Origin: Dehalococcoidia bacterium
GTDB lineage: Bacteria; Chloroflexota; Dehalococcoidia; SM23-28-2; HRBIN24
Reading direction: 5' to 3'
DNA length: 64,000 nt
NCBI GenBank assembly: GCA_025062275.1
Contig: JANXAP010000020.1
Coordinates: 19,882-83,881, forward strand
Below, piece after piece: positions 2,795 to 63,618 of this stretch. The position numbers and the translations under genes were made by a program. The notes beneath the pieces are model-generated. The model searched no databases. It saw nothing but the letters and a program-made list of their open reading frames with translations, and was not told the origin of the DNA. Positions within the stretch are counted from its first letter, which is position 1. Each line of letters begins with the position of its first letter.

Positions 2795-4476
2795 CAGGCG
2801 CCCAGGCGGGCCTCCTCCTCCTCGACGATGCTCGGGTCCAGCTTCTTGAAAAGGGGCTCGGGCTCCAGCAGGTGCTGCCCCGGTCGAGGCAGATCGAAGC
2901 GCCAGCCCTGGGCCTCCAGCGTGCCCTTGTAGCCCAGCATCTGATGCAGCCGCTGGCTGGTGAAGGGCAGATAGGGGTAAAAGGCTACCTTGAGTCCATT
3001 GATGGCAGCGATGCTGGTGTAGATGACGGTGGCGCAACGGGGCCGGTCCTGCCCCACCAGCCGCCAGGGCGCGCTGTCCTCCAGGTAACGATTGGCCTCC
3101 CGCGCCGCCGCCATGGCCGCCTCGATCCCCGCCCGGAAGCGACAGGCAGCGATGTTCTCCCCCGTCCGCTTCAGGGCCTGCTCCACCTGATGTAGCAACA
3201 TCCGGTCTCGCTCCAGCAGCTGGGCCGGCGTGGGGATGGTGCGGTCGAAGTGGCGGTAGGCAAAGGCCAGCACCCGGTTCACCAGGTTGCCCCACGTGGC
3301 CACCAGCTCGTCGTTGTTGCGACGCACGAAGTCGGCCCAGGTGAAGTCCGAGTCGGAGGTCTCGGGCATGGTCACCGCCAGGTAGTAACGCAGGGGGTCT
3401 GGATCGTAGCGTGAGAGGAAGTCAAGCACCCACACCGCGAGGTTGCGGCTGGTGGAGGCCTTGGCCCCCCGCACCGTCTGGTACTGATTGGCGGGGACAT
3501 CGTATGGCAGGTTGTACGGCTCGCCGGTGGCGTCGGAATAGGCCATCAGCTGGGCCGGCCAGATGAGGGTGTGGAAGATGATGTTGTCCTTGCCGATGAA
3601 GTAATAGCTCTTGCACTTGGGGTCCTGCCAGAACTGGCGCCACTTTTCGGGGTCGCCCTGGCGCTGCGCCCACTCCTTGGAGGCCGAAAGGTAGCCGATG
3701 ACGGCCTCGAACCAGACATAGATGCGCTTGTCCTGGTACCCCTCCAGGGGAATGGGCACCCCCCACGTGATGTCGCGGGTGATGGCCCGGTCGCGCAGCC
3801 CCTGCTCCAGCAACGACAGGGAGAAGTTGAGGACGTTCTTGCGCCAGTGGGCCTTGTCGCTGGAGAGCCACTTGCGCAGGCGGTCGTTGTAAGCGCTGAG
3901 ACGCAGGAAGAAGTGCTCCGACTCCCGTATCTCCGGGCGGGAGCCGTCGAAGCGGCAACGAGGGTCCAGGAGGTCCACGGGGTCCAGCACGTTGCCGCAG
4001 TTGTCGCACTGGTCGCCCCGGGCCGCCGTGTAGCCACAGATGGGGCAGGTGCCCTCCACGTAGCGGTCCAGCAGGAAGCGCTCCTCCACGGTGCAGAAGG
4101 GAAGGCGCATGGTGCCCTTGTAGATGTCGCCTCGCTCGTAGAGCTTCAGGAAGATGTCGTGCACGGTGCGAGCATGGTTCTCGGTCCCCGTAGAGGTGTA
4201 AAGGTCGAAGCTGATGCCCAGCCGCCGCCACGTTTCGAGGAACTCCTGGTGGTAGTGGGCGGCGATCTCGGCCGGCGTCTTCCCTTCCTGCTCCGCCCGC
4301 ACGGTGATGGGCGTGCCGTGCTGGTCGCTGCCCGAGACCATCAGCACCTGGTTGCCGACGGTGCGGTGGTAACGGGCGAAGATATCGGCAGGCAGATAAG
4401 CCCCCACTATCTGTCCGGTGTGCAAGGGGCCGTTGGCGTAGGGCCAGGCCACGCCGATGAAGATTCGCTCGGCCAT
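2794..4476 (-). CDS. metG: methionyl-tRNA synthetase
   Basis: PLHTGQ (HIGH-type) motif, zinc knuckle CPICG...CDNCG, class I aaRS anticodon-binding region. Confidence 0.9.
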   Translation of the reverse strand: MAERIFIGVAWPYANGPLHTGQIVGAYLPADIFARYHRTVGNQVLMVSGSDQHGTPITVRAEQEGKTPAEIAAHYHQEFLETWRRLGISFDLYTSTGTENHARTVHDIFLKLYERGDIYKGTMRLPFCTVEERFLLDRYVEGTCPICGYTAARGDQCDNCGNVLDPVDLLDPRCRFDGSRPEIRESEHFFLRLSAYNDRLRKWLSSDKAHWRKNVLNFSLSLLEQGLRDRAITRDITWGVPIPLEGYQDKRIYVWFEAVIGYLSASKEWAQRQGDPEKWRQFWQDPKCKSYYFIGKDNIIFHTLIWPAQLMAYSDATGEPYNLPYDVPANQYQTVRGAKASTSRNLAVWVLDFLSRYDPDPLRYYLAVTMPETSDSDFTWADFVRRNNDELVATWGNLVNRVLAFAYRHFDRTIPTPAQLLERDRMLLHQVEQALKRTGENIAACRFRAGIEAAMAAAREANRYLEDSAPWRLVGQDRPRCATVIYTSIAAINGLKVAFYPYLPFTSQRLHQMLGYKGTLEAQGWRFDLPRPGQHLLEPEPLFKKLDPSIVEEEEARLGA

Positions 4477-7897: not shown

Positions 7898-8950
7898 GTG
7901 TGGCGTAAGCTGCTGCTGACGGCCGTGGCCCTGACGACGGCAGGGCTGCTCTCCGTCGGCCGTGGCCAGGCCCAGTCCCCCCAGATATCGGTGGGAGTGG
8001 CCGCTTCCTCCCCCGGCAGTACAGCCATCGTGGCCGTCACCGTCTCCCCCGATCCCCAGGCCCCCCTGGGGGCGGCCGTGTTGCGCATCGCCTACGACTC
8101 CTCCCGCCTGCGGGCCACTGCTTTCTCCCCCCTATCGGAGGGCGTGGTGGCTGAGTGCGACCTTTCGGCAGTGGGGTCGGTCCGCTGTGGGCTGCTACAC
8201 GCCACGGGAATGGCGGGGCAGGTCATGTCCCTCACTTTCCAGGTCCTGCCAGCAGCAGCGCCGGGCGTCGTCCCCCTCTCGCTCACTGTGGAGGAGTGCT
8301 TCACCGTTCAGGGGGATGGGGCCAACTGCCTCCGCGCCGACGGGGCGGTGGTCGTCCAGTCGACCACCACGCCGCCGCCGGCACCGCTGCTGGTGGCCAT
8401 TCGCCCCCTGTCAACGACCCAGGCCCTTATCAGTTGGCTGCCGACCTCAGGGACCACCCATTACCGCCTGAGGAGCGCCCTCAACTTCGAAATGACCTTT
8501 GGCGTCAGGGAGACGCCGCTACCGGTGGAGTCGCTGCCCCTGGGCAATGGCCTGACGGTGGGGGTGCCCGACGCCGACGGCCTGGCCTTCTACTACCAGC
8601 TGGCCGCCTGCAACCAGGCAGGGTGTTCGCCCTTCGTGCGCGCCGGGGGGCTGGCGCGCCGCATATGGCCGGGTGCCAACGACTGGAACTTCTACATGGC
8701 GGCCTACGACTTTATAGGCACCACCACCGCCTGGGCCTTCAACGCCAGCCCCGTGCCGGGCAAGGCGTCGGTCATCGCCTTTTACGACGGTATCCAGGGT
8801 TTCGGCGCCACGCCCAGGGGCCAGTGCTCGTTGCCACTGCCGCCGGGCAGCGCCTGCACCCTCAGCTGGCCGGGGGCCAGCGCCTTCGCCAGCGCCTCTC
8901 AGTCCTTCCCGCCCTTCGGAGAGGTGGGCACAGCCCTGAGGGTCAGGTAG
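7898..8950 (+). CDS. secreted protein with cohesin-like and FN3-like domains
   Basis: Signal peptide MWRKLLLTAVALTTAGLLSVGRGQAQ; cohesin-like beta-sandwich pattern (AIVAVTVSPD...VLRIAYDSSRL); Thr/Pro linker then FN3-like segment. Confidence 0.55.
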   Translation: MWRKLLLTAVALTTAGLLSVGRGQAQSPQISVGVAASSPGSTAIVAVTVSPDPQAPLGAAVLRIAYDSSRLRATAFSPLSEGVVAECDLSAVGSVRCGLLHATGMAGQVMSLTFQVLPAAAPGVVPLSLTVEECFTVQGDGANCLRADGAVVVQSTTTPPPAPLLVAIRPLSTTQALISWLPTSGTTHYRLRSALNFEMTFGVRETPLPVESLPLGNGLTVGVPDADGLAFYYQLAACNQAGCSPFVRAGGLARRIWPGANDWNFYMAAYDFIGTTTAWAFNASPVPGKASVIAFYDGIQGFGATPRGQCSLPLPPGSACTLSWPGASAFASASQSFPPFGEVGTALRVR

Positions 8951-14326: not shown

Positions 14327-14668
14327 ATGGGAGGTTTCCACTTCGAGCGCGAGTACCGCACCCCCTACTCCGAGTGCTACACCATCGAGCTGAACGAGGA
14401 CGAGGTGGGGCGAGTAGACCTCCACTACGGCACCGAGGTGGTCTACGCGACGCTGGTGGTGAGCGAGCGGCTGACCCAGGACGAGATCCGCCAGCTCATC
14501 GGCGAGATAGACGAACGCCTGGTGCTCACCTCCGACCCCCTGCGAGAGGACTTCGTGGTCACCGTCTGGGTGGGACGCGAGGAGGGCGTCTACTCCGACG
14601 AGGACCAGGAGGAAGAAGAGGACGAAGAAGACGAGGAGTTCGAGGGCAACGGCTATATGAAGGACTAG
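14327..14668 (+). CDS. hypothetical acidic protein (113 aa)
   Basis: ATG after GAAGGAGG RBS; highly acidic C-terminal tail (DEDQEEEEDEEDEEFEG); upstream part of the track ORF overlaps proA and is rejected. Confidence 0.55.
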   Translation: MGGFHFEREYRTPYSECYTIELNEDEVGRVDLHYGTEVVYATLVVSERLTQDEIRQLIGEIDERLVLTSDPLREDFVVTVWVGREEGVYSDEDQEEEEDEEDEEFEGNGYMKD

Positions 14669-15618
14669 CCGCCCCGCTTGCGAGCTAGCAGCCGCTGCGC
14701 CTCGCGGGCCAGCCGCTGCGGCGTCAACCCGAAGTGCTCCAGCAGCTCGTCCCAGCGCCCGCTGGTGCCGAAGGTCTCCATGCCCACGCAGGCCACCGGC
14801 ACCGGGCACTCCCGCGCCGTCACCTGGGCCACCAGGCTCCCCAGGCCGCCGTGGACGCTGTGGTCCTCGGCCGTCACGATGGCACCCGTCTCCCGCGCGG
14901 CCGCCACGATGGCCTCCTCGTCCAGGGGACGCAGGGTGGCCATGTTGAGGACCCGACAGCCGATGCCCTCCCGGGCTAGCAGGTCGGCTGCCTCCAGGGC
15001 AGCGGGTACCATTACGCCGATGGCGATGATGGTCACATCGCCGCCGTCGCGCAGGCGGTGGGCCCTGCCCAGCTGGAAGCGGTAGGAGTCATCGTAGATG
15101 ACGGGCACCTTGGGCCGCACCATGCGGATGTAAAAGGGGCCGTATCGCCGGGCTGCCTCCTCGATGGCCTGGGCGCACTCTACCACGTCGGCGGGGACGA
15201 TGACGCGGAAGGTGGGCAGGGCCAGCATCAGAGCCAGGTCCTCCAGCGACTGGGCCGAGGCCCCGTCCTCCCCGGTGACGATGCCCCCATGGGAGGCAGC
15301 GATCTTGACGTTCAGGTTGGGCTGGGCCACTGCCATACGCACCTGGTCGTAGCAGTGGCCAGGGATGAAGACGGCGAAGGAGCTCACGAAGGCTATCTTG
15401 CCGGCCGCGGCCAGCCCGGCAGCGACGCCCACAGCGTTCTGCTCCGCCACCCCCATGGTGAAGAAGCGGTCGGGGAACTCGCGTCCGAACTGGGCAGCGG
15501 TGGTGGAGACGCCCAGGTCGGCGTCCACCACCACGATGTCCAGCCCCTCCCGGGCCAGCCTGACCAGGGTAGGCCCCAGCGCCTCGCGGGTAGCTGCCGC
15601 CTTCGCCGCCTGAACCAT
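14665..15618 (-). CDS. transketolase, C-terminal (pyrimidine-binding) subunit
   Basis: Transketolase Pyr and C-terminal domain motifs (FFTMGVAEQNAVGVAAGLA); split-type transketolase. Confidence 0.9.
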   Translation of the reverse strand: MVQAAKAAATREALGPTLVRLAREGLDIVVVDADLGVSTTAAQFGREFPDRFFTMGVAEQNAVGVAAGLAAAGKIAFVSSFAVFIPGHCYDQVRMAVAQPNLNVKIAASHGGIVTGEDGASAQSLEDLALMLALPTFRVIVPADVVECAQAIEEAARRYGPFYIRMVRPKVPVIYDDSYRFQLGRAHRLRDGGDVTIIAIGVMVPAALEAADLLAREGIGCRVLNMATLRPLDEEAIVAAARETGAIVTAEDHSVHGGLGSLVAQVTARECPVPVACVGMETFGTSGRWDELLEHFGLTPQRLAREAQRLLARKRGG

Positions 15619-53977: not shown

Positions 53978-55405
53978 TCAGATGTCGTAGTACAGGTAGA
54001 ACTCGTAGGGGTGGGGGCGCAGGCGCACCGGGTCCACTTCCCGTCGCCGCTTGTATTCCAGCCACGTCCCCAGCAGGTCGGACGTGAACACCCCGCCCCG
54101 CAACAGGAACTCGTGGTCCTCCTCCAGCTCTCGCAGCGCCTCGTCCAGGCTGCCCGGCACCGTGCGCAGGCCGGCCAGCTCCTCGGGCGAAAGCTCGTAG
54201 ACGTCGGTGTCCAGGGGGTCGCCGGGGTCCATCTCGTGGAAAATGCCGTCCAGCCCGGCCATCAGAATGGCAGCGAAGGCCAGGTAAGGGTTGCAGGAGG
54301 GGTCGGGCGTGCGGAACTCGATGCGCTTGGCCGCCGGGCTGCGGGAGTAGACGGGGATGCGCACCGCCGCCGACCGGTTGCGCTGGGAGTAGACCAGGTT
54401 CACGGGGGCCTCGAAGCCCGGCACCAGCCGCCGGTAGGAGTTGGTGGTGGGGGCGATGAGGGCGCAGAGGGCGCGGGCATGCCGAAGCAGCCCGCCGATG
54501 AAGTACATGCCCAGCAGGCTGAGCTGGGCATAGCCCTCGGGGTCGTAGAACAGGTTCTCGCCGTCCTTCCACAGGCTCACGTGCACGTGCATGCCCGAGC
54601 CGTTGTCGCCGAAGAGGGGCTTGGGCATGAAGGTGACCGTTTTGTCGTGCTCCCGGGCCACGTTGCGCAGGATGTACTTGTAGAGCATCACCTGGTCGGC
54701 CATGCGGGTCAGGGTCTGATAGCGCATGTCTATCTCACCCTGGCCGGCGGTGGCCACCTCGTGGTGGTGCACCTCGATGTCGATGCCCGCCTCCATCATC
54801 TTGAGGATGGCGATGGAGCGCAGATCCTGCAGGCTGTCGGTGGGCGGTGCAGGGAAGTAGCCCTCCTTGTAGCGGGGGCGGTGGCCCAGGTTTTTGCCCT
54901 CCCGCCCCGAGTTCCAGGCCCCTTCCTCCGAGTCCACGAAGTAGTAGCCGCAGTGCTCGTTCTGGTCGTAACGGACGCTGTCGAAGATGAAGAACTCCAC
55001 CTCGGGGCCGAAATAGGCCGTGTCGGCGACGCCCGACTCCCGCAGGTAGGCCTCGGCCTTCTGGGCCACGTAGCGGGGGTCGCGCCAGTAGCGCTCGCCC
55101 GTCACCGGGTCGCGCACGTCGCAGATGACTGACAGGGTGGGCACCCTGTAGATGGGGTCCACGAAGGCGCTGGACGGGTCGGGCACCAGCAGCATGTCCG
55201 ACTCCTGGATGTGCTGGAAGCCGCGGATGGAGGAGCCATCGAAGCCGATGCCGTCGCGGAAGACCCCCTCGTCCAGCGCCCTGGCCGGTATGGAGAAGTG
55301 CTGGAGGGTGCCGGGCAGGTCGGTGAATTTCAGGTCGACGATCTGGATGCCGCGCTCGCGGCAGAGGGCGATGACCTCGCCGGGGCTCCTGGGCCATCTC
55401 TCCAC
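53978..55405 (-). CDS. glnA: glutamine synthetase type I
   Basis: GS-I signatures ([17 protein letters not shown], adenylylation-region NPYL...) over 475 aa. Confidence 0.95.
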
Positions 55406-55419
55406 CCCTCTTCACCTCC

Positions 55420-56826
55420 CTAGGCGTTCTGGCCTTCGCCTTCCTCACCGGTCCCCTTGAGGCCGGGGACGCGCCGCACCAGCTCCTCCAGCCTGACGCC
55501 GGTGAGGGCCTCGATGATGGGCGGCAGCTGGGCGATGACCTCGGCCACGTCGCGGGTGACGCGGCTGGCGCCGGCGGCGCCGTCGGCCCCGCCCGAGACG
55601 ATGACGATGCGCTCGGTGCGGGAGAGGGGCTGGGCCACCGCCTCGGCCAGCCGGGGCAGGATGTTGACCAGCATCTCGGTGACGGCAGCCTGGTTGTAGC
55701 GGGCCCAGGCCTCGGCCTTGCGGTCCATGGTCTCGGCCTCGGCCTGTCCCTTCTCGCGGATGACGTCGGCCTCGGCCAGGCCCACCGCCCGCACTCCCTC
55801 GGCCTCGCCCTGGGCCTCTGTCTGGCGGCGGTAGCGCTCGGCCTCCGCCAGCTCCTGGATGCGCTGGCGCTCGGCCTCGGCCGGCTTGATGACCGAGGCC
55901 ACCAGCTCCTTCTCCTTGCGCAGGATCTCTTTCTCCTCCAGTTCGGTGCGCAGCTCCTTCTCCAGGATGTCGAGCTGGACCTCCTCTCGCTTCACCAGCT
56001 GGGCGGTCTTGTAGCGCTGCAGGTCGTAGGCCAGGTCGGCTTCGGCGCGGCGCTGAGCTATGGCCGCCTCCACTTCGGCCCGCTTCAGCTCGTAGTCGCG
56101 GCGGGCGTCCTCGATCTTCATGTCGGCCTGATAGCGGAAGGTCTTGGCCTCCTCGTCGGCCCTGGCCTCGCCGATGATGGCGTCCCGCTTCACCTGGGCG
56201 GTGCGGGGGCGGCCCAGGGCCTCCAGGTAGCCGCGGGGGTCGGCGATGTTGCGCACCGTCAGGGAGACCACCTCCAGGCCCATGCGGTCCAGGTCCTGGC
56301 TGGCCAGGGCCTTCACCTGCTCGGCGAACTCTCGACGCTTGGTGTAGAGGTCCTCGATGGAGACGGTGCCCAGGACGGAGCGCATGTGCCCCTCCACCAC
56401 CTGCAGGGCGGTGCGCATCACCTCCTCCTGGGGGCGCGACAGGAAGTGCTCGGCCGCCCGAGCGATGGCCCCCTCCTCGCCCTTGACCTTGACGTGGGCC
56501 ACGGCGTCCACCGCCACCGGGACGCCGTGGACGGTGTAGACCTCCGGCGTGCGCACCTCGAAGCTCATCAGTTCCAGGGAGAGGCGCCGCGCCTGCTCGA
56601 CGATGGGCCAGACTACCGTGCCGCCGCCCCAGACGATGCGGTAGCCCAGGGTCCGCAGGCGGCCCTCGGGGTCGGTGACGGTGCGCCGTCTGCCCGCCAC
56701 GATGAGCACCTCATTGGGGCCGACCTTGGTATAGCGGGCTGCCGCCACCGGCAGCAGCACCGGCCAGAAAAGCAGCCAGGCCAGGCCCCAGAGGACATAG
56801 TAAATGGCGCTGCCGCCCTGCCTCAC
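55420..56826 (-). CDS. flotillin-like SPFH/band-7 protein
   Basis: N-terminal TM segment, SPFH domain, long Glu/Ala/Arg-rich coiled-coil flotillin tail. Confidence 0.85.
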   Translation of the reverse strand: MRQGGSAIYYVLWGLAWLLFWPVLLPVAAARYTKVGPNEVLIVAGRRRTVTDPEGRLRTLGYRIVWGGGTVVWPIVEQARRLSLELMSFEVRTPEVYTVHGVPVAVDAVAHVKVKGEEGAIARAAEHFLSRPQEEVMRTALQVVEGHMRSVLGTVSIEDLYTKRREFAEQVKALASQDLDRMGLEVVSLTVRNIADPRGYLEALGRPRTAQVKRDAIIGEARADEEAKTFRYQADMKIEDARRDYELKRAEVEAAIAQRRAEADLAYDLQRYKTAQLVKREEVQLDILEKELRTELEEKEILRKEKELVASVIKPAEAERQRIQELAEAERYRRQTEAQGEAEGVRAVGLAEADVIREKGQAEAETMDRKAEAWARYNQAAVTEMLVNILPRLAEAVAQPLSRTERIVIVSGGADGAAGASRVTRDVAEVIAQLPPIIEALTGVRLEELVRRVPGLKGTGEEGEGQNA

Positions 56827-56832
56827 GGCGCA

Positions 56833-58129
<1,297 letters not shown>

Positions 58130-58765
58130 TCACCTGGCATAGGCGCGCTCGCCGTGCTGGGCCAGGTCCACACCCAGCAGCTCCTCCCGCGGGCTCACCC
58201 TGATGCCCAGAGTCCAGTCCAAGAGCTTCAGGATGACGAAGGTCATGACGAACGAGTAACCCCAGGTGGCGCCGATCCCCGACAGCTGGGCCAGGATCTG
58301 CTCCGGCCGCCCGTCTATCGCCCCGCCGATGCCGCCCTGGAAGCCTGCCGTCTGGGTCACCAGCGAAGTGGCGAAGATGCCCGTGGCCAGGGCGCCCCAG
58401 GTGCCGCCCATGCCGTGCACCGCCCACACGTCCAGGGAGTCGTCCACGTCCAGCCAGTGCTTAACCCGCGCCGCCCCGTAGCAGATGACCCCCGCCCCGG
58501 CGCCGATGACGAGGGCCGGCAGGATGTTGATGTAGCCGTCGGCGGCGTCCCACGCCCCCACGAAGCCCGAGGCGGGGGTGATGGCCACCAGCCCCGCCAC
58601 CGCCCCTGTGGCGGCGCCGGTGACGCTGGGCACCCCCTGGTAGAGCCAGCTCATGGCCAGCCAGGCCAGGGCAGCGGCCGCCGCCGCCGTGTTGGTCACC
58701 ACGAAGGCGTTGGCCGCCGAGGCGCCGGCGGCCACGGCGCTGCCGGCGTTGAAGCCGAACTCCAC
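58130..58765 (-). pseudogene. amt: ammonium transporter Amt, 5'-truncated (C-terminal ~210 aa only)
   Basis: Strong Amt similarity from the FGFNAGSA motif to the C-terminus; the upstream in-frame sequence is not Amt-like and TM1-5 (~200 aa) are absent anywhere nearby. Confidence 0.6.
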
Positions 58766-58766
58766 T

Positions 58767-59010
58767 GAAACGGACCCGAGCGCCCCCGAAGGGAACACAG
58801 ATACCGCCTGGAAACGCACGGAAACACCTGAAGGCCCTGGAGTGGAACCTAGGGGAACCGACTGCCCCGTTATGCTTCGCCCCGTTGATGACCAATTTGA
58901 TGACCAAATGCTGAGAAAGTGAGCCGATTGAAACAGTTGGAAACACTTTCGGTATTTGAATTGTTTCACTGGAGTGCCCTGGAGTGCCCTGTAGAGGAAT
59001 CTAGTGCCCT
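58767..59010. repeat. lower-GC (~50%) region with phased GnAAC pentamers and three sets of short tandem repeats
   Basis: GAAAC/GGAAC at ~58767, 58792, 58811, 58821, 58844, 58854, 58930, 58940, 58963(rc), including three pairs spaced exactly 10 bp; ttgatgaccaa x2; ggagtgccct x2 (+1 partial). Confidence 0.6.
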
Positions 59011-59087
59011 TGAGAGGAAGTCTCAGACCGTTACGGGCTAGAAGAGGCAGCCTGACGACACGTGCACCGGATCTCTCGCGCAAGGTC

Positions 59088-59116
59088 TTGACAGCGCCCT
59101 CACTCGCTTGTATCCT
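59088..59116 (+). promoter_or_regulatory. candidate promoter TTGACA-N17-TATCCT for the tad operon
   Basis: Consensus -35 with a plausible -10 about 40 nt upstream of the cpaB RBS GGAGGTGG. Confidence 0.4.
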
Positions 59117-59156
59117 TCCTGGCGACGGTTCGGTACCTCTGGCGGAGGTGGCCGGT

Positions 59157-59915
59157 ATGACAAGCGTGGCCAGGCGGGAGGCGAGGACAGGCCGTCTCGA
59201 CCTGCGCCTCGTCCTGGGCCTCGGCATCGCCCTCGCAGCCTTCCTCATCGGCATCCAGGTCTACTCCGCGGGTCAGCCCAAGAGCGTGGACGTGCTCGTG
59301 GCCGCCCGTGACCTGCCCCAGGGCGCCGTCCTGGGCGACGGTGACCTGAGGGTTGAGAGCGTGCCGGTGAACGACCGGCTGCGGCAGTACCTGGTGGCGG
59401 CGTCGGCCAGGGCTGATGTGGTAGGGAAGGCGACGGCGAGGCCTTTGCGGGCCGGGGAGCCCATCACCATGTCGTCCCTCACCCAGGGGCTGCCCCTTGA
59501 GGCTGACGAGGTGGCGCTGGCGCTGCCGGTCCTGGACCGCATCTACGTCCCCTACCAGGTGGAGAAGGGGCAGCGGGGCCTGCTCTACGCCATCGGCGCG
59601 GGGCAGGGCGGTGCCCAGCAGGCGGTGCTGGTGAGCGAGCGGGTGCGGGTGCTGGAGGTGGTGCGCTCCCGCCAGCAGGCCGGGACCGGGGGCGAGGTGC
59701 AGGGCGCTCCCACCAGCGTGACGCTGGCGGTGCCGCGCGAGGAGGCGGAGCTGGTGTCCCGGGCCATCGCCCAGAACATCGTCGCCCTGGCGGTCCTGCC
59801 GGCGGGGGTACAGGCGCCGGCCGTGCCCAGGGCGGGGCAGGGGACGACCCTGCCGGCGCCGGGAGGGGCGGGCGCCGGCACGCCGGCCGCGACCGCCACG
59901 CCGGCGGCACGGTAG
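59157..59915 (+). CDS. cpaB: Flp pilus assembly protein CpaB (SAF/RcpC domain)
   Basis: N-terminal TM anchor then SAF-domain pattern (VLVAARDLPQGAVL...); Ala/Pro-rich tail. Confidence 0.8.
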   Translation: MTSVARREARTGRLDLRLVLGLGIALAAFLIGIQVYSAGQPKSVDVLVAARDLPQGAVLGDGDLRVESVPVNDRLRQYLVAASARADVVGKATARPLRAGEPITMSSLTQGLPLEADEVALALPVLDRIYVPYQVEKGQRGLLYAIGAGQGGAQQAVLVSERVRVLEVVRSRQQAGTGGEVQGAPTSVTLAVPREEAELVSRAIAQNIVALAVLPAGVQAPAVPRAGQGTTLPAPGGAGAGTPAATATPAAR

Positions 59916-59927
59916 CCAGGAGGAGCC

Positions 59928-61133
59928 ATGAGGGAAGAGGTGTACGGCGCCGTGGCGGGCACCGAGCCCCCCGAGGGGAGGGCGTGGCGCGTCCAGCCTC
60001 GGGTCATCGTGGGCGTGGACAGGCAGCGGGCGTCCGGCCTGAGACAGGCCCTCATGGCGGCAGGCCTGGAGGTGGCGCCCGGCCTGACCATGGAGGACGT
60101 GCTGCGCTATGCGGCGGAAGGGAGGGGCGACCTGGCGCTCGTGTCCGGCAGCTTCCGGGGGGTGACGTCCGAGCGGCTGGACGAGCTGCGCGCCCTGGGC
60201 CTGCCGGTGGTGGTCATGGCCAGGGACGACGACTCGGCGCGCTACATGGGCCGGGGCTACGTCGTCCTGCCCGACCGCTTGCCCCCCGAGCAAGTGACGG
60301 AGGCGGTGCTGGCCGTCCTGGAGGGCCGTATGGCGCCCTCGCCGGCCGGGACGGCACCCCCCACGCCGGCGGTCCCGGAGGAGGAAGGGGAGGAGGGCAA
60401 GGGGAGGCTGGTGACGGTCTGCGGCCTCAAGGGCGGGTCGGGCAAGACGACCCTTGTCCTCTCGCTGGCCTACGCCATTGGCCGGGCCGGGCGACGGGCA
60501 TGCGCCCTCTCCCTGGACCCGGTGGCGAGCGACTTCCAGGCCTACCTCGGCCTCGATGTGGGCGACGGCATCGCGGTGGCAGTAGGCAGCTCGGAGATGG
60601 AGCAGGCGGTGGCGAGGGAGCTGAGGGCCGTCGCCAAGGGGTGCGACGTCCTGTGTGGCCCCTTCCGGCCCATTGGGATGCGGGCCGTCACGGGGGAGCT
60701 GGCGAGGCGGGTAGTGGCGTTCCTGCGGCGCCGCTACGACGTCGTGCTGGTGGACGCCGGCAACTACCCCACCGAGCACCCTGCGGCCGGCTGGGCCATG
60801 GAGGCGGCAGACCAGCTGCTGGTGGTCATCACGCCCGAGTTCGTGAGCATCTACCGGGCGCATGTGAGCATGGAACGGCTGCAGGAGCTGCGCCGTGGCC
60901 GCTGGACGGGCATCGTCATGTGCCGCTACCGGCGCGGCCGGCACCACTGGACGGAGCACGAGGTGCGGGACGAGCTGGGGCTGCCCATCGTGGGCGTGGT
61001 GCCCGATGACGAGAAGGGGGCGGCGCGGGCGCTGGACCGGCAGGCGCCCCTTGTGGCCGTGGGCGGCAGGGCGGCAGCGGCCATAGAGAGGCTGGCGCGG
61101 CAGCTGCTGGCGGTGGAGGTGGCGGCGCGATGA
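59928..61133 (+). CDS. cpaE: CpaE/TadZ pilus-assembly ATPase: receiver-like N-domain plus MinD/ParA-type ATPase
   Basis: Deviant Walker A GLKGGSGKTT in the C-terminal domain; N-terminal CheY-like pseudo-receiver region. Confidence 0.8.
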   Translation: MREEVYGAVAGTEPPEGRAWRVQPRVIVGVDRQRASGLRQALMAAGLEVAPGLTMEDVLRYAAEGRGDLALVSGSFRGVTSERLDELRALGLPVVVMARDDDSARYMGRGYVVLPDRLPPEQVTEAVLAVLEGRMAPSPAGTAPPTPAVPEEEGEEGKGRLVTVCGLKGGSGKTTLVLSLAYAIGRAGRRACALSLDPVASDFQAYLGLDVGDGIAVAVGSSEMEQAVARELRAVAKGCDVLCGPFRPIGMRAVTGELARRVVAFLRRRYDVVLVDAGNYPTEHPAAGWAMEAADQLLVVITPEFVSIYRAHVSMERLQELRRGRWTGIVMCRYRRGRHHWTEHEVRDELGLPIVGVVPDDEKGAARALDRQAPLVAVGGRAAAAIERLARQLLAVEVAAR

Positions 61134-62422
61134 CCCTGCGCATGGGGCCGGACGACGGCATCCTCCCCTCCCTGGAGGAGCAGGTGAGGGAGGTGATCCG
61201 GCGGGCGCCGCCGGATGAGGTGCTGGCGCCCGACGGCGCCGAGCGGCTGCGGCGGCGGGTGATGGGGTTCGTGGAGGAGTACAACCGGCGCCGCCAGCTG
61301 ATGGGGTATCCGCCCTTGGCCGGGGCGGAGCGGCTGGCCGAGGAGCTGCTGCGGCAGGTCCTGGGTGCCGGCCCCTTGCAGCCGCTGCTGGACGACCCCG
61401 ACGTGGAGGAGATCATGGTCAACGCCCCCGACAACGTGATGGTGGTGCGGGAGGGGGAGATCGAGGTGGCGCCGACGGTCTTTCGCGACGACGAGGAGGT
61501 GCTGGAGCTGGCGCAGCGGCTGGTGGGGCTGCGCGGGGAGAGGCTGGACTATTCGCAGCCGGTGGTGGACGTGATGCTGCCCGACCGGGCGCGGCTGCAC
61601 GCCGTCATTCCGCCCATAAGCGAGCATGTGGTGCTGACCATCCGCAAGTATACGGTGCGGGCGGAGGAGCTGTCGCAGCTGGTGGAGCTGGGCACATGCA
61701 CCGAGGAGGTGGCCCGCTTCTTGGAGGCGCTGGTGCTGGCCCGCAAGACGATCCTCGTGGTGGGCGGGACGTCATCGGGCAAGACGACCATGGTGAACTG
61801 CCTGGGCAACTGCATCCCGCCCAAGGAGCGGGTGGTAAGCATCGAGGACCGGGTGCGGGAGCTGCGCTTCGGCAGCCTGGCCAACTGGGTGCCCCTCGTG
61901 ACGCGTGGCCCCAACGCCGAGGGCGTGGGGGAGATCACCATGCAGCAGCTGGTGAAGGAGTCGCTGCGCATGCGGCCCGACCGCATCGTCATCGGCGAGA
62001 CGCGAGGTTCCGAGGCGCTGGACTTCCTGCGGGCGGTGACGAGCGACCACCCCGGGAGCCTCTCCACCATCCACGCCATGGGCGGTAGGCATGCCATGGA
62101 GCGGGTACGGATCTATGCCCAGATGGACCCGCGCCTGGCGCCGCCGCCCCACGTGGTGGACGAGCTGGTGGCGGAAGGGATCCAGTTCGTGGTCCACATG
62201 GGGCGGGTGCCGCGCTCGAGGCTGCGGCGGGTGCTGTCCGTCTGGGAGGCGACGGGCATGGAGCGGGAGGGGCCGCGCAGCACCTTCGTGGGCAACGACA
62301 TCTTCCGGCGCGGCGAGGACGGGCGGCTCCACTTCACGGGGGTGAGGCCCCGCTGCGCGCGGGAGGTGGAGCACCTGGGGCCCTTCCCGTGGAGCGCCAG
62401 GTCATTCTACGTGGGCGAGTAG
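61130..62422 (+). CDS. cpaF: CpaF/TadA type II/IV secretion-family ATPase
   Basis: Walker A GGTSSGKTT, Asp box, Walker B and His box of the T2SS-E/VirB11 family. Confidence 0.9.
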   Translation: MTLRMGPDDGILPSLEEQVREVIRRAPPDEVLAPDGAERLRRRVMGFVEEYNRRRQLMGYPPLAGAERLAEELLRQVLGAGPLQPLLDDPDVEEIMVNAPDNVMVVREGEIEVAPTVFRDDEEVLELAQRLVGLRGERLDYSQPVVDVMLPDRARLHAVIPPISEHVVLTIRKYTVRAEELSQLVELGTCTEEVARFLEALVLARKTILVVGGTSSGKTTMVNCLGNCIPPKERVVSIEDRVRELRFGSLANWVPLVTRGPNAEGVGEITMQQLVKESLRMRPDRIVIGETRGSEALDFLRAVTSDHPGSLSTIHAMGGRHAMERVRIYAQMDPRLAPPPHVVDELVAEGIQFVVHMGRVPRSRLRRVLSVWEATGMEREGPRSTFVGNDIFRRGEDGRLHFTGVRPRCAREVEHLGPFPWSARSFYVGE

Positions 62423-62547
62423 AAGGAGGTGAAGGGCTAGGAAGAGGTCCCGAGGGTGAGGCAGGGCGGGAGGCCCGCCCTGCCGGGGGAGCCGGCCGCC
62501 CCTGCCCCTGCCAGGACCGGGGGGCGGCCGGGCACACGCCCGCAGCG

Positions 62548-63618
62548 ATGATACATCCCCCCGGCCGAGAGCGCCAGGCCTCCTGCCCACCTCCTGGGGA
62601 GAGCCCGCAAGCCGTGGCCACGGCCCTTGCCCTGACCGTCGTCATCGCGGCCTTCCCCTTCCCGGAGATACCGCGCCCTTCGGGGGCGCTCTTCGCCATC
62701 CTCCTGGCCGTCGCCGCCCTCGGGGTCTACCTGGCCCTCTCGGAGAGGGCGGCGAGCCTCTTCATGCGGGCTGCTGCCGCGGCGGGCGGGGCCGTGCCGG
62801 GAGGGGCACGACCCCCCGTGTGGCATCCCGACGGCGTGAGGGAGCTCCTGGACGAGGCGGGCTACCACCGCGTCACGCCCCTCGCCTTCTACGGTGCCTG
62901 CGCCGCCGGTGCGGTCCTGGGGGCGCTGGTGGGGAACCTCCTCGCGCCGGGCGTGGCCGTGGTGATGGCCGCCGGCGCGGTGGGCGGCTTCATGGTCCCG
63001 TTCCACCTGGTGACCAGGCAGGCCGATGCGGTGGCCAGCAGGCGGCGGGGGCAGTTCGCCGAGGCGGTGGAGGTGCTGCGGGGCCTGATGCGCAGCGGCC
63101 ACGGCCTTGAGGGCAGCATCGCCTTCCTGGCCGAAAGAGGGCCGAAGCTGATGCAGCCGGTCATGCAGGAGGCGCTGGTGGCGCTGCGCACGGGCGGCAT
63201 GTACGAGGCGGCGGAGGTGCTGCGGCGCCGGGTCGCCTCCTATGACGGCGACCGGCTGGCCCTTGCCCTGGCGGCGGCGGTGGCCTACGGCGGCGGGAGC
63301 GTGGGGGCGGTCATCGAGGAGGTGGCGAGGGCGGTGAGGGACGACCTGCTGGTGCGGCGGGAGGCGGAGGCGGAGATGGCCAGGCAGGAGCTGGCGGCGC
63401 GCATCATCGGCGGCATGCCCATCGTCATCCTGGCCGCCATGTTCCGCTTCTCGCCGGAATATGCCGCCGTCTACCGGGAGCCGCTGGGGCAAGGGGTGCT
63501 GGCGGTCATGTTTGCCCTCATCGTGCTGGGCTACGTGCTCATGCGCAGGGGGATGCAGCTGCCCCGGGAGGGGAGGCTCCAGGTGAACCCGGCGCTCATA
63601 GGGGAGGCGCGGGCGTGA
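62548..63618 (+). CDS. tadB: TadB pilus-assembly inner-membrane protein (T2SS-F domain)
   Basis: TM helices flanking a cytoplasmic T2SS-F-like domain; ATG 62548 chosen; Gly/Arg-rich 5' part of the track ORF rejected. Confidence 0.7.
   Translation: MIHPPGRERQASCPPPGESPQAVATALALTVVIAAFPFPEIPRPSGALFAILLAVAALGVYLALSERAASLFMRAAAAAGGAVPGGARPPVWHPDGVRELLDEAGYHRVTPLAFYGACAAGAVLGALVGNLLAPGVAVVMAAGAVGGFMVPFHLVTRQADAVASRRRGQFAEAVEVLRGLMRSGHGLEGSIAFLAERGPKLMQPVMQEALVALRTGGMYEAAEVLRRRVASYDGDRLALALAAAVAYGGGSVGAVIEEVARAVRDDLLVRREAEAEMARQELAARIIGGMPIVILAAMFRFSPEYAAVYREPLGQGVLAVMFALIVLGYVLMRRGMQLPREGRLQVNPALIGEARA

Follow-up and report, generated by a model that had tools for sequence, protein, structure and literature searches.

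What is a short, AT-richer patch, crowded with regularly spaced repeats, doing between half of an amt gene and the genes for a Tad pilus? The question is raised by positions 58767-59010 of a 64,000-nucleotide stretch of Dehalococcoidia DNA (contig JANXAP010000020.1), which was analyzed as a whole and is here called the window. A reading made from the sequence alone had offered three answers. The patch might be what survives of a nitrogen-regulator binding region in the former amt promoter, a regulatory region for the divergent tad operon, or the scar or end of an inserted element. The third answer has been borne out, and can now be defined precisely, with both junctions of the insertion found on one contig.

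To the left of the patch lies amt' (58130..58760, minus strand), the C-terminal half of amt. It matches only positions 205-399 of the 399 in the Pfam Ammonium_transp profile; the gene is indeed truncated, as had been said. Directly downstream is glnK (57788-58126), and the row continues as amt'-glnK-(a 321-aa protein without a Pfam match)-flotillin/SPFH-glnA, all co-directional on the minus strand (53978-58760). To the right, on the plus strand, are tad genes (59157..63618) that match Pfam SAF/RcpC, CbiA/AAA_31, T2SSE, and T2SSF: cpaB (59157-59915), a gene for a tadZ/cpaE-like ATPase (59928-61133), tadA/cpaF (61130-62422), and tadB (62614-63618). The locus extends past the end of the window; its continuation, in L018, has tadC, flp, two copies of tadE, and tadG.

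The repeats of the patch are as they had been described. Nine GRAAC pentamers (that is, GAAAC or GGAAC) lie within 58767-59010, eight on the plus strand (starting at 58767, 58792, 58811, 58821, 58844, 58854, 58930, and 58940) and one on the minus strand (as GTTTC, at 58963). Three pairs are spaced by exactly 10 bp: 58811/58821, 58844/58854, and 58930/58940. The lower GC content is also confirmed, at 0.515-0.525 in 200-bp windows and 0.537 over 58767-59010, compared with 0.696 for the window. Two tandem repeats accompany the pentamers. One is TTGATGACCAA-t-TTGATGACCAA (58885..58907, plus strand), a 12-bp tandem whose copies at 58885-58895 and 58897-58907 are separated by a single t. The other is CTGGAGTGCC, present in 2.3 copies (58969-58991); with the overlapping direct repeats AGTGCCCTGTAGAGGAA / AGTGCCCTTGAGAGGAA, it fills 58969..59019 (plus strand), between the pentamers and the cpaB promoter. 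Finally, the terminal ACTCCACTGAAAC has an inverted copy at 58963-58975, matching at 12 of 13 positions, 191 bp away.

Such a density is not what base composition delivers. In shuffles that kept the local composition, the patch was expected to hold a mean of 0.7 plus-strand GRAAC pentamers (mononucleotide shuffle) or 1.5 (first-order Markov), where eight are observed (P <= 1e-4), and 0.002-0.008 of the 10-bp pairs, where three are observed. These 244 bp hold 8 of the 50 plus-strand GRAAC in the window. They also hold every one of the three occurrences of GRAAC-N5-GRAAC on either strand of the 64 kb. The bare pentamer GNAAC shows no window-wide enrichment (230 found, 243 expected). A scan of 58000-59600 with Rfam (E <= 1) gave no match, and folding of the patch as single-strand DNA and as RNA gave z-scores of -0.4 and +1.1, with no sign of a structured RNA or of a hairpin end.

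Where does the patch begin? Contigs that encode a CpaB identical, or 97% identical, to that of the window share 396 bp with it (58761-59156), at 98.7-100% identity. On the left, beyond 58761, they diverge into four different genes, each on the minus strand and each truncated at its 5' end. These are an EVE-domain gene that adjoins dnaA (L012, L013, and L015, the last being the GTDB representative 'Bacterium HR24'), amt (the window; L011/L018), a gene for a small acidic protein, present as its last ten codons and adjoining transketolase (L017/L036, L037, L039, L041), and an SBP_bac_5 ABC-transporter gene (L038, L019, L042, L043). Native homologues of the EVE gene carry a different 26-residue N-terminus, the match of the SBP to its Pfam profile does not begin before position 116, and the gene for the acidic protein is intact in the window (14327-14670). 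The junctions are reproduced in metaSPAdes-type, MEGAHIT, JGI, and Logan assemblies, and are therefore not the artefact of one assembler. The copies of the tad segment are 99.8-99.97% identical to each other while their host flanks are only 83% identical, which is the signature of a mobile element.

In amt, the break falls inside the coding sequence, at the FGFN codons. The target is uninterrupted in relatives, which have an intact amt encoding 427 amino acids (L001-L007, L026, L031, L032), and contigs that encode an identical GlnK have this intact amt preceded by trxB, trx, and holA. Compared with the intact amt of L003, the gene of the window is 100% identical up to 58760 and divergent beyond. 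A native amt running across the junction point is also found in GCA_033581795.1 (L030, a contig that begins inside amt).

The same assembly, GCA_033581795.1, delivers the other end of the insertion. Its contig JAVQSQ010000002.1 (180,292 bp) begins exactly at window position 58747 and matches the window through 64000 at 99.98%. A walk along the tad side covered 14.9 kb; the far end was located instead with the integrase of a sister island (below), which has a 94% homologue on this very contig. Here, about 165 kb along, come in order a restriction-modification-type N6-methyltransferase gene, a gene for an AAA_25 protein, a gene for an HTH_17 excisionase-like protein, and the gene for a 381-aa tyrosine integrase. 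The integrase gene is followed by IS110-like and IS256-like transposase genes, an arm, the 14 bp CGTTGAAGCCGAAC, and the N-terminal half of amt, which together with trxB, trx, and holA is 99.84% identical to the native locus. About 15 kb of the ~165 kb were read at each end.

The 14-bp CGTTGAAGCCGAAC is thus amt sequence that stands at both junctions, in the window at 58747..58760 and in the far-end locus L062 at 15039-15052, and both are on one contig. It follows that the window records a simple ~165-kb insertion within amt, with one copy of a 14-bp direct repeat on either side, and that the crossover region lies within 58747-58760. The insertion explains the truncated amt. It also separates the rest of the amt-glnK-...-glnA row, in this strain, from the native amt promoter, which lies with the 5' half of amt ~165 kb from the break, beyond the inserted DNA.

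A sister island, ~97% identical, occupies the three other genes, and at one of these, the gene for the acidic protein, both junctions were recovered. A lookup of proA from the window led to L055, a contig from the same sample as L037, where the acidic protein gene runs into a tyrosine integrase gene, followed by genes for an HTH protein, an HTH_17 excisionase-like protein, an AAA_25 ATPase, and restriction-modification; the same attL is found in an independent assembly (L059). The sister island is flanked by the 16-bp GGAGTTCGAGGGCAAC, at attL in L055 and L059 and at attR in L037, L036, L039, and L041. In the window this attachment site is empty (14635..14650, plus strand), lying in the last codons of the 113-aa acidic protein gene (14327-14670). 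Integration of the sister island there alters only the last few residues of the protein (112 aa compared with 113). The native targets and the core have G-TTCG...CAA(C/G) in common, and the EVE and amt targets share 12-13 nt, TTCGGCTTCAA. This sharing fits a requirement for identity in the overlap region.

The enzyme at the far end is of a familiar type. The integrase matches PF00589 (4.8e-27), PF14659 with its SAM-like domain, and phrog_1 (8.7e-72, over residues 5-370). The HTH_17 protein matches PHROGs for excisionases and recombination directionality factors. Residues 1-64 of the integrase are outside all Pfam and PDB matches and are covered by the broad phrog_1 profile only; no Pfam arm-binding family matches these first 64 residues.

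The repeats of the patch recur beside this integrase. The integrase-side arm in L062 contains three GRAAC pairs at 10-11 bp spacing (14612/22, 14669/79, and 14699/710), with no further such pair in the 21-kb locus. These pairs are on the strand opposite to those of the window; both arrays thereby point into the island, as mirror images. The same arm carries TTGATGACCAGTTTGATGACCAA, with a near-identical copy of the tandem at 14807-14829. In the sister island, seven of the 22 GRAAC that L055 has on that strand over 21 kb fall within ~110 bp of the integrase-side arm (P < 5e-5). This arm has in common with that of the window the identical 16-mer GAAACAGTTGGAAACA, as well as an identical 25-nt stretch that includes the TTGATGACCAA tandem (L055 11844-11868). 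The stretches of matching pairs are L062 14612-14714 and L055 11964-12066. Nearest the core, the integrase-side arms of the two island variants are not the same. Counting sites with a spacing of N5 or N6, GRAAC pairs are confined to the arms throughout the 64 + 21 + 21 kb examined (3 of 3 in the window, 3 of 3 in L055, 3 of 3 in L062). Sites extend up to ~215 bp from the core on the tad side and up to ~430 bp on the integrase side.

These observations make it likely that a ~165-kb integrative element has its integrase-distal attachment junction at 58747 to ~58975; in lambda terms this is attR, comprising P arm, core, and host DNA. Its arm, 58761..58975 on the plus strand, has a GC content of 0.53 and starts at 58761 in all four host genes. 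An annotator should accordingly not take the 58747-58975 boundary as nitrogen-regulatory. Several points weigh against the attachment-junction reading: the length of the arms, the IS genes that interrupt the integrase side in L062, the divergence of the two variants near the core, the lack of a Pfam arm-binding match at the N-terminus of the integrase, and the proximal motifs that relatives keep ahead of cpaB (below), which would suit a role in tad regulation equally well.

How might such a junction work? From 58761 on, the DNA is that of the island, whose first ~215 bp form a low-GC arm with two classes of putative protein-binding repeats. The GRAAC(A) pentamers, mostly in pairs 10 bp apart, would be arm-type sites for the N-terminal part of the tyrosine integrase. 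The two copies of TTGATGACCAA would be bound by an accessory protein, for which the HTH_17 excisionase-like protein and a host factor are the candidates; no match to the IHF consensus WATCAANNNNTTR was found in the arm. With the DNA bent and integrase bound to both arm and core sites, the complex that excises and integrates the island would then assemble. The predicted attP reads ...GTGACGTCGC-CGTTGAAGCCGAAC-TCCACTGAAAC...

The assignment of the two classes draws on more distant relatives. In L044 and L047, whose CpaB proteins are 68-71% identical to that of the window, the proximal GRAAC pair, its inverted copy, and the tandem stand in the same places ahead of cpaB. The TTGATGACCAA tandem is 100% conserved there (L044 9716-9815; L047 about 780-860). 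The GRAAC-type sites, however, have all changed together, to GGAAC/GTTCC in L044 and to three copies of TGTTCCACTTC at 11 bp in L047. Judged by sequence, this joint change looks like co-evolution with a binding protein. With the tandem fixed at ~70% CpaB identity while the pentamers change, the GRAAC sites are most likely the element-specific arm-type sites of the integrase, and the tandem is most likely the site of an accessory factor. The reverse assignment, of course, may hold.

Position near a gene for a pilus invites a different explanation. The GRAAC pairs and the TTGATGACCAA tandem might be sites for a transcription factor of the tad operon, for example a response regulator of the OmpR/PhoB type, their place at the end of an island being incidental. 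Direct repeats at 10-bp phase would suit such a regulator. So would the location of the sites, 150-320 bp upstream of a cpaB promoter that appears conserved: a consensus scan found one promoter-like site, TCTTGACA-17-TATCCT (59087..59116, plus strand), where 0.1 was expected, and its -35 element TCTTGACA is invariant in six aligned cpaB upstream regions. The positions held by the proximal pair, the inverted copy, and the tandem in L044 and L047, in other genomic contexts, point the same way. Nonetheless, the same pairs and tandem stand ~165 kb away, downstream of the integrase gene, and in L055 that arm is flanked by the 3' ends of two convergent genes, a setting that calls for no promoter. 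Recurrence at the island's other end in a 3'-3' intergenic region argues for recombination rather than transcription. The pairs are found nowhere else in the 64 + 21 + 21 kb, the array at one end mirrors that at the other, as recombination arms would, and no response-regulator gene was seen beside the locus in the parts that were read. We therefore regard control of tad by these sites as a rather unlikely purpose for them. Of the earlier suggestion that the patch regulates tad, the cpaB promoter and the conserved proximal motifs stand, while the pairs and the tandem recur beside an integrase. Comparison of the integrase-side arm of L055 with the arm of the window found no match to the repeats at 58969-59019; these are possibly an operator of tad.

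The remaining alternatives fare worse. That the patch is a remnant GlnR-type region (GnAAC-n6-GnAAC) of the former amt promoter was suggested by the resemblance of GnAAC to GlnR half-sites and by amt-glnK next door, and the true amt promoter of relatives does have n6-spaced pentamers (L003 8560-8602). Yet the patch abuts amt in mid-coding sequence rather than at its 5' end, is 100% contiguous with the tad locus where the neighboring gene is not amt, and has all three of its pairs at n5 (10-bp phase) rather than n6 (11-bp phase). The comparison with amt upstream regions of relatives found no similarity between the patch and the native promoter region (L003 8557-8713), which lies beyond the insertion with the 5' half of amt. 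The idea is refuted. Nor does a replication origin deserve much more than mention. Here, dnaA and obg adjoin the patch in L012 and L015 (~0.6 kb from dnaA in one context), the patch is richer in AT than the DNA around it, and both gene orientation and local GC skew switch near 58800. However, the dnaA neighborhood is only one of the four insertion contexts, reached through the 5'-truncated EVE gene. No DnaA-box-like 9-mer with up to two mismatches occurs in 58761-59156, and the skew changes sign together with gene orientation at the insertion junction. An origin at this place would be most surprising.

Two further ideas, an assembly chimera and the terminus of a DDE transposon or MITE carrying transposase-binding repeats, would account for several contigs ending 0-24 nt from the junction, for the 12/13 inverted repeat of ACTCCACTGAAAC 191 bp apart, and for multiple subterminal repeats that resemble Tn7- or Mu-type ends. 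Against a chimera, the whole insertion and both its junctions lie on one 180-kb contig with an exact 14-bp repeat, four assembly pipelines give the junctions, and the coexistence of occupied and empty sites explains why contigs end where they do, with stops at the 55-mers from 58747. Against a transposon, the recombinase at the far end is a tyrosine integrase rather than a DDE enzyme, and the 14 and 16 bp repeated at the flanks were already part of the targets and are not a duplication of fixed length. Against a MITE, no second copy of the 58761-59156 block exists in the window or in 35 fetched loci. Explanations of this class are thus very improbable. Several narrower candidates had been entertained and dropped. 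A microhomology-mediated deletion was abandoned once one contig proved to carry both junctions. Target-specific insertion next to CGAAC by an element of the IS91 or IS200/IS605 type, a 215-bp MITE with 11-13-bp terminal inverted repeats, and Tn7/Mu-type ends were each set aside on the absence of a second copy and the presence of a tyrosine integrase.

The attachment-junction reading gains from comparison with systems that are well understood. In the lambda paradigm, the N-terminal domain of Int binds arm-type sites, and sites for Xis, IHF, and Fis are between arm and core (PMC4880445). In mycobacteriophage attP, paired arm-type sites of ~10-11 bp flank the core and are inverted between the arms, and their consensus drifts with the N-terminus of the integrase (PMC3203893). 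The island resembles lambda, L5, and the CrimD/Cluster K att sites in having a tyrosine integrase with an excisionase-like gene at one end, a short core identical at both junctions, and low-GC arms with ~10-bp sites far from the core, often paired and inverted between arms. As in the mycobacteriophage and lambda systems, the site consensus drifts between related elements (PMC3203893, PMC4880445).

The likeness is, of course, not complete. The island is ~165 kb long, compared with ~50 kb for a phage genome. Unlike lambda and the mycobacteriophages, it has many more candidate arm sites (9 and 6-8) on longer arms, and an integrase whose arm-binding N-terminal domain is only putative. Its integration sites number at least four, and at three of these it has destroyed the coding sequence it entered. 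Its core, moreover, differs between near-identical variants, being 14 bp in amt and 16 bp in the acidic protein gene.

Integrative genomic islands, some perhaps conjugative or mobilisable, and including the tad 'widespread colonization island', provide a second comparison. With these, the island shares a large, strain-variable insertion bounded by direct repeats. It also shares genes for an integrase, an excisionase, a replication-type ATPase, and restriction-modification, an adhesion-pilus locus as cargo, and near-identical copies in hosts whose flanks are 83% identical. In the ~30 kb read, no conjugation genes were seen. It differs from the 'widespread colonization island' in its hot-spring Chloroflexota host and in having the tad locus directly against the att arm. 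As for OmpR/PhoB or GlnR boxes, the patch has in common with them direct repeats at helical phase and GnAAC-like half-sites; it departs from them in its n5 spacing, in the mirror-image arrays at the ends of a mobile element, one of which is promoter-less, and in having no link to amt.

Does the element still move? Here, GCA_033581795.1 is informative in having an occupied and an empty amt together. Its contigs 21 (native amt) and 2 (island) each terminate at a 55-mer whose first position is 58747, where the core starts. A k=55 assembly graph gives such stops when empty and occupied sites coexist, and the excised circle is probably there as well. No attP sequence was recovered. From this we infer an element that may still be active. 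The IS110-like (Transposase_20) and IS256-like (Transposase_mut) genes that stand between the integrase gene and its GRAAC array (L062 11539-14483) may impair excision.

A bolder version of the same reading can be put forward only tentatively, and we consider it doubtful. The island may be an active, very large element whose core is rewritten at each excision, and whose att occupancy couples expression of the Tad pilus to the integrated or excised state. If so, rewriting of the core would let near-identical copies hop among the amt, EVE, SBP_bac_5, and acidic protein genes, which share only GTTCG...CAA(C/G), and between species. Integrase or excisionase on an att arm beside the tad promoter would provide the coupling, and the whole would be a concrete mechanism of mobility for a tad 'colonization island' in thermophilic Chloroflexota.

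More firmly, because the tad promoter comes directly after the arm, no other cargo lies closer to this end of the island than the Tad pilus operon, which reads away from the arm. This means that a Tad pilus locus of hot-spring Chloroflexota travels on an integrase-bearing island, which is direct structural evidence for the mobility of a tad island. With the island found in at least four sites, and in hosts with flanks only 83% identical, its spread between species appears recent. The type of element is already known, a tyrosine-integrase island; this is an ordinary but clearly resolved example. For the integrase, so far uncharacterised and from a lineage not in culture, it defines a set of candidate core, arm-type, and accessory sites.

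Three smaller observations were made along the way. An open frame of 374 codons runs on the minus strand from the start region of cpaB through the arm into amt' (58130-59254), and the remnant of the host gene is in frame with a GTG at 58819 at four of four insertion sites. Codon bias (xxG TTC Gxx), and not a true fusion gene, probably explains the frame; a lookup of the fused ORF, 58130-58819, returned no record.

The tandem has one match elsewhere. The IMG/VR contig L061 contains the exact 23-mer TTGATGACCAATTTGATGACCAA (3057-3079), the sole match in a scan of viral contigs. It falls within a coding repeat (..DGQFDDQFDDQ..) of an unrelated, AT-rich virus, and was rejected as a relative of the island; the match is a coincidence.

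The last concerns the native amt promoter, which is absent from the window. In L003, between trxB and the intact amt (8560-8602), is the array GTAAC-n6-GCAAC-n6-GTAAC-n6-GTAAT, in exact 11-bp phase. These pentamers resemble the GlnR boxes of actinobacteria. Thus, this Chloroflexota lineage may have a nitrogen regulator of the OmpR type, similar to GlnR.
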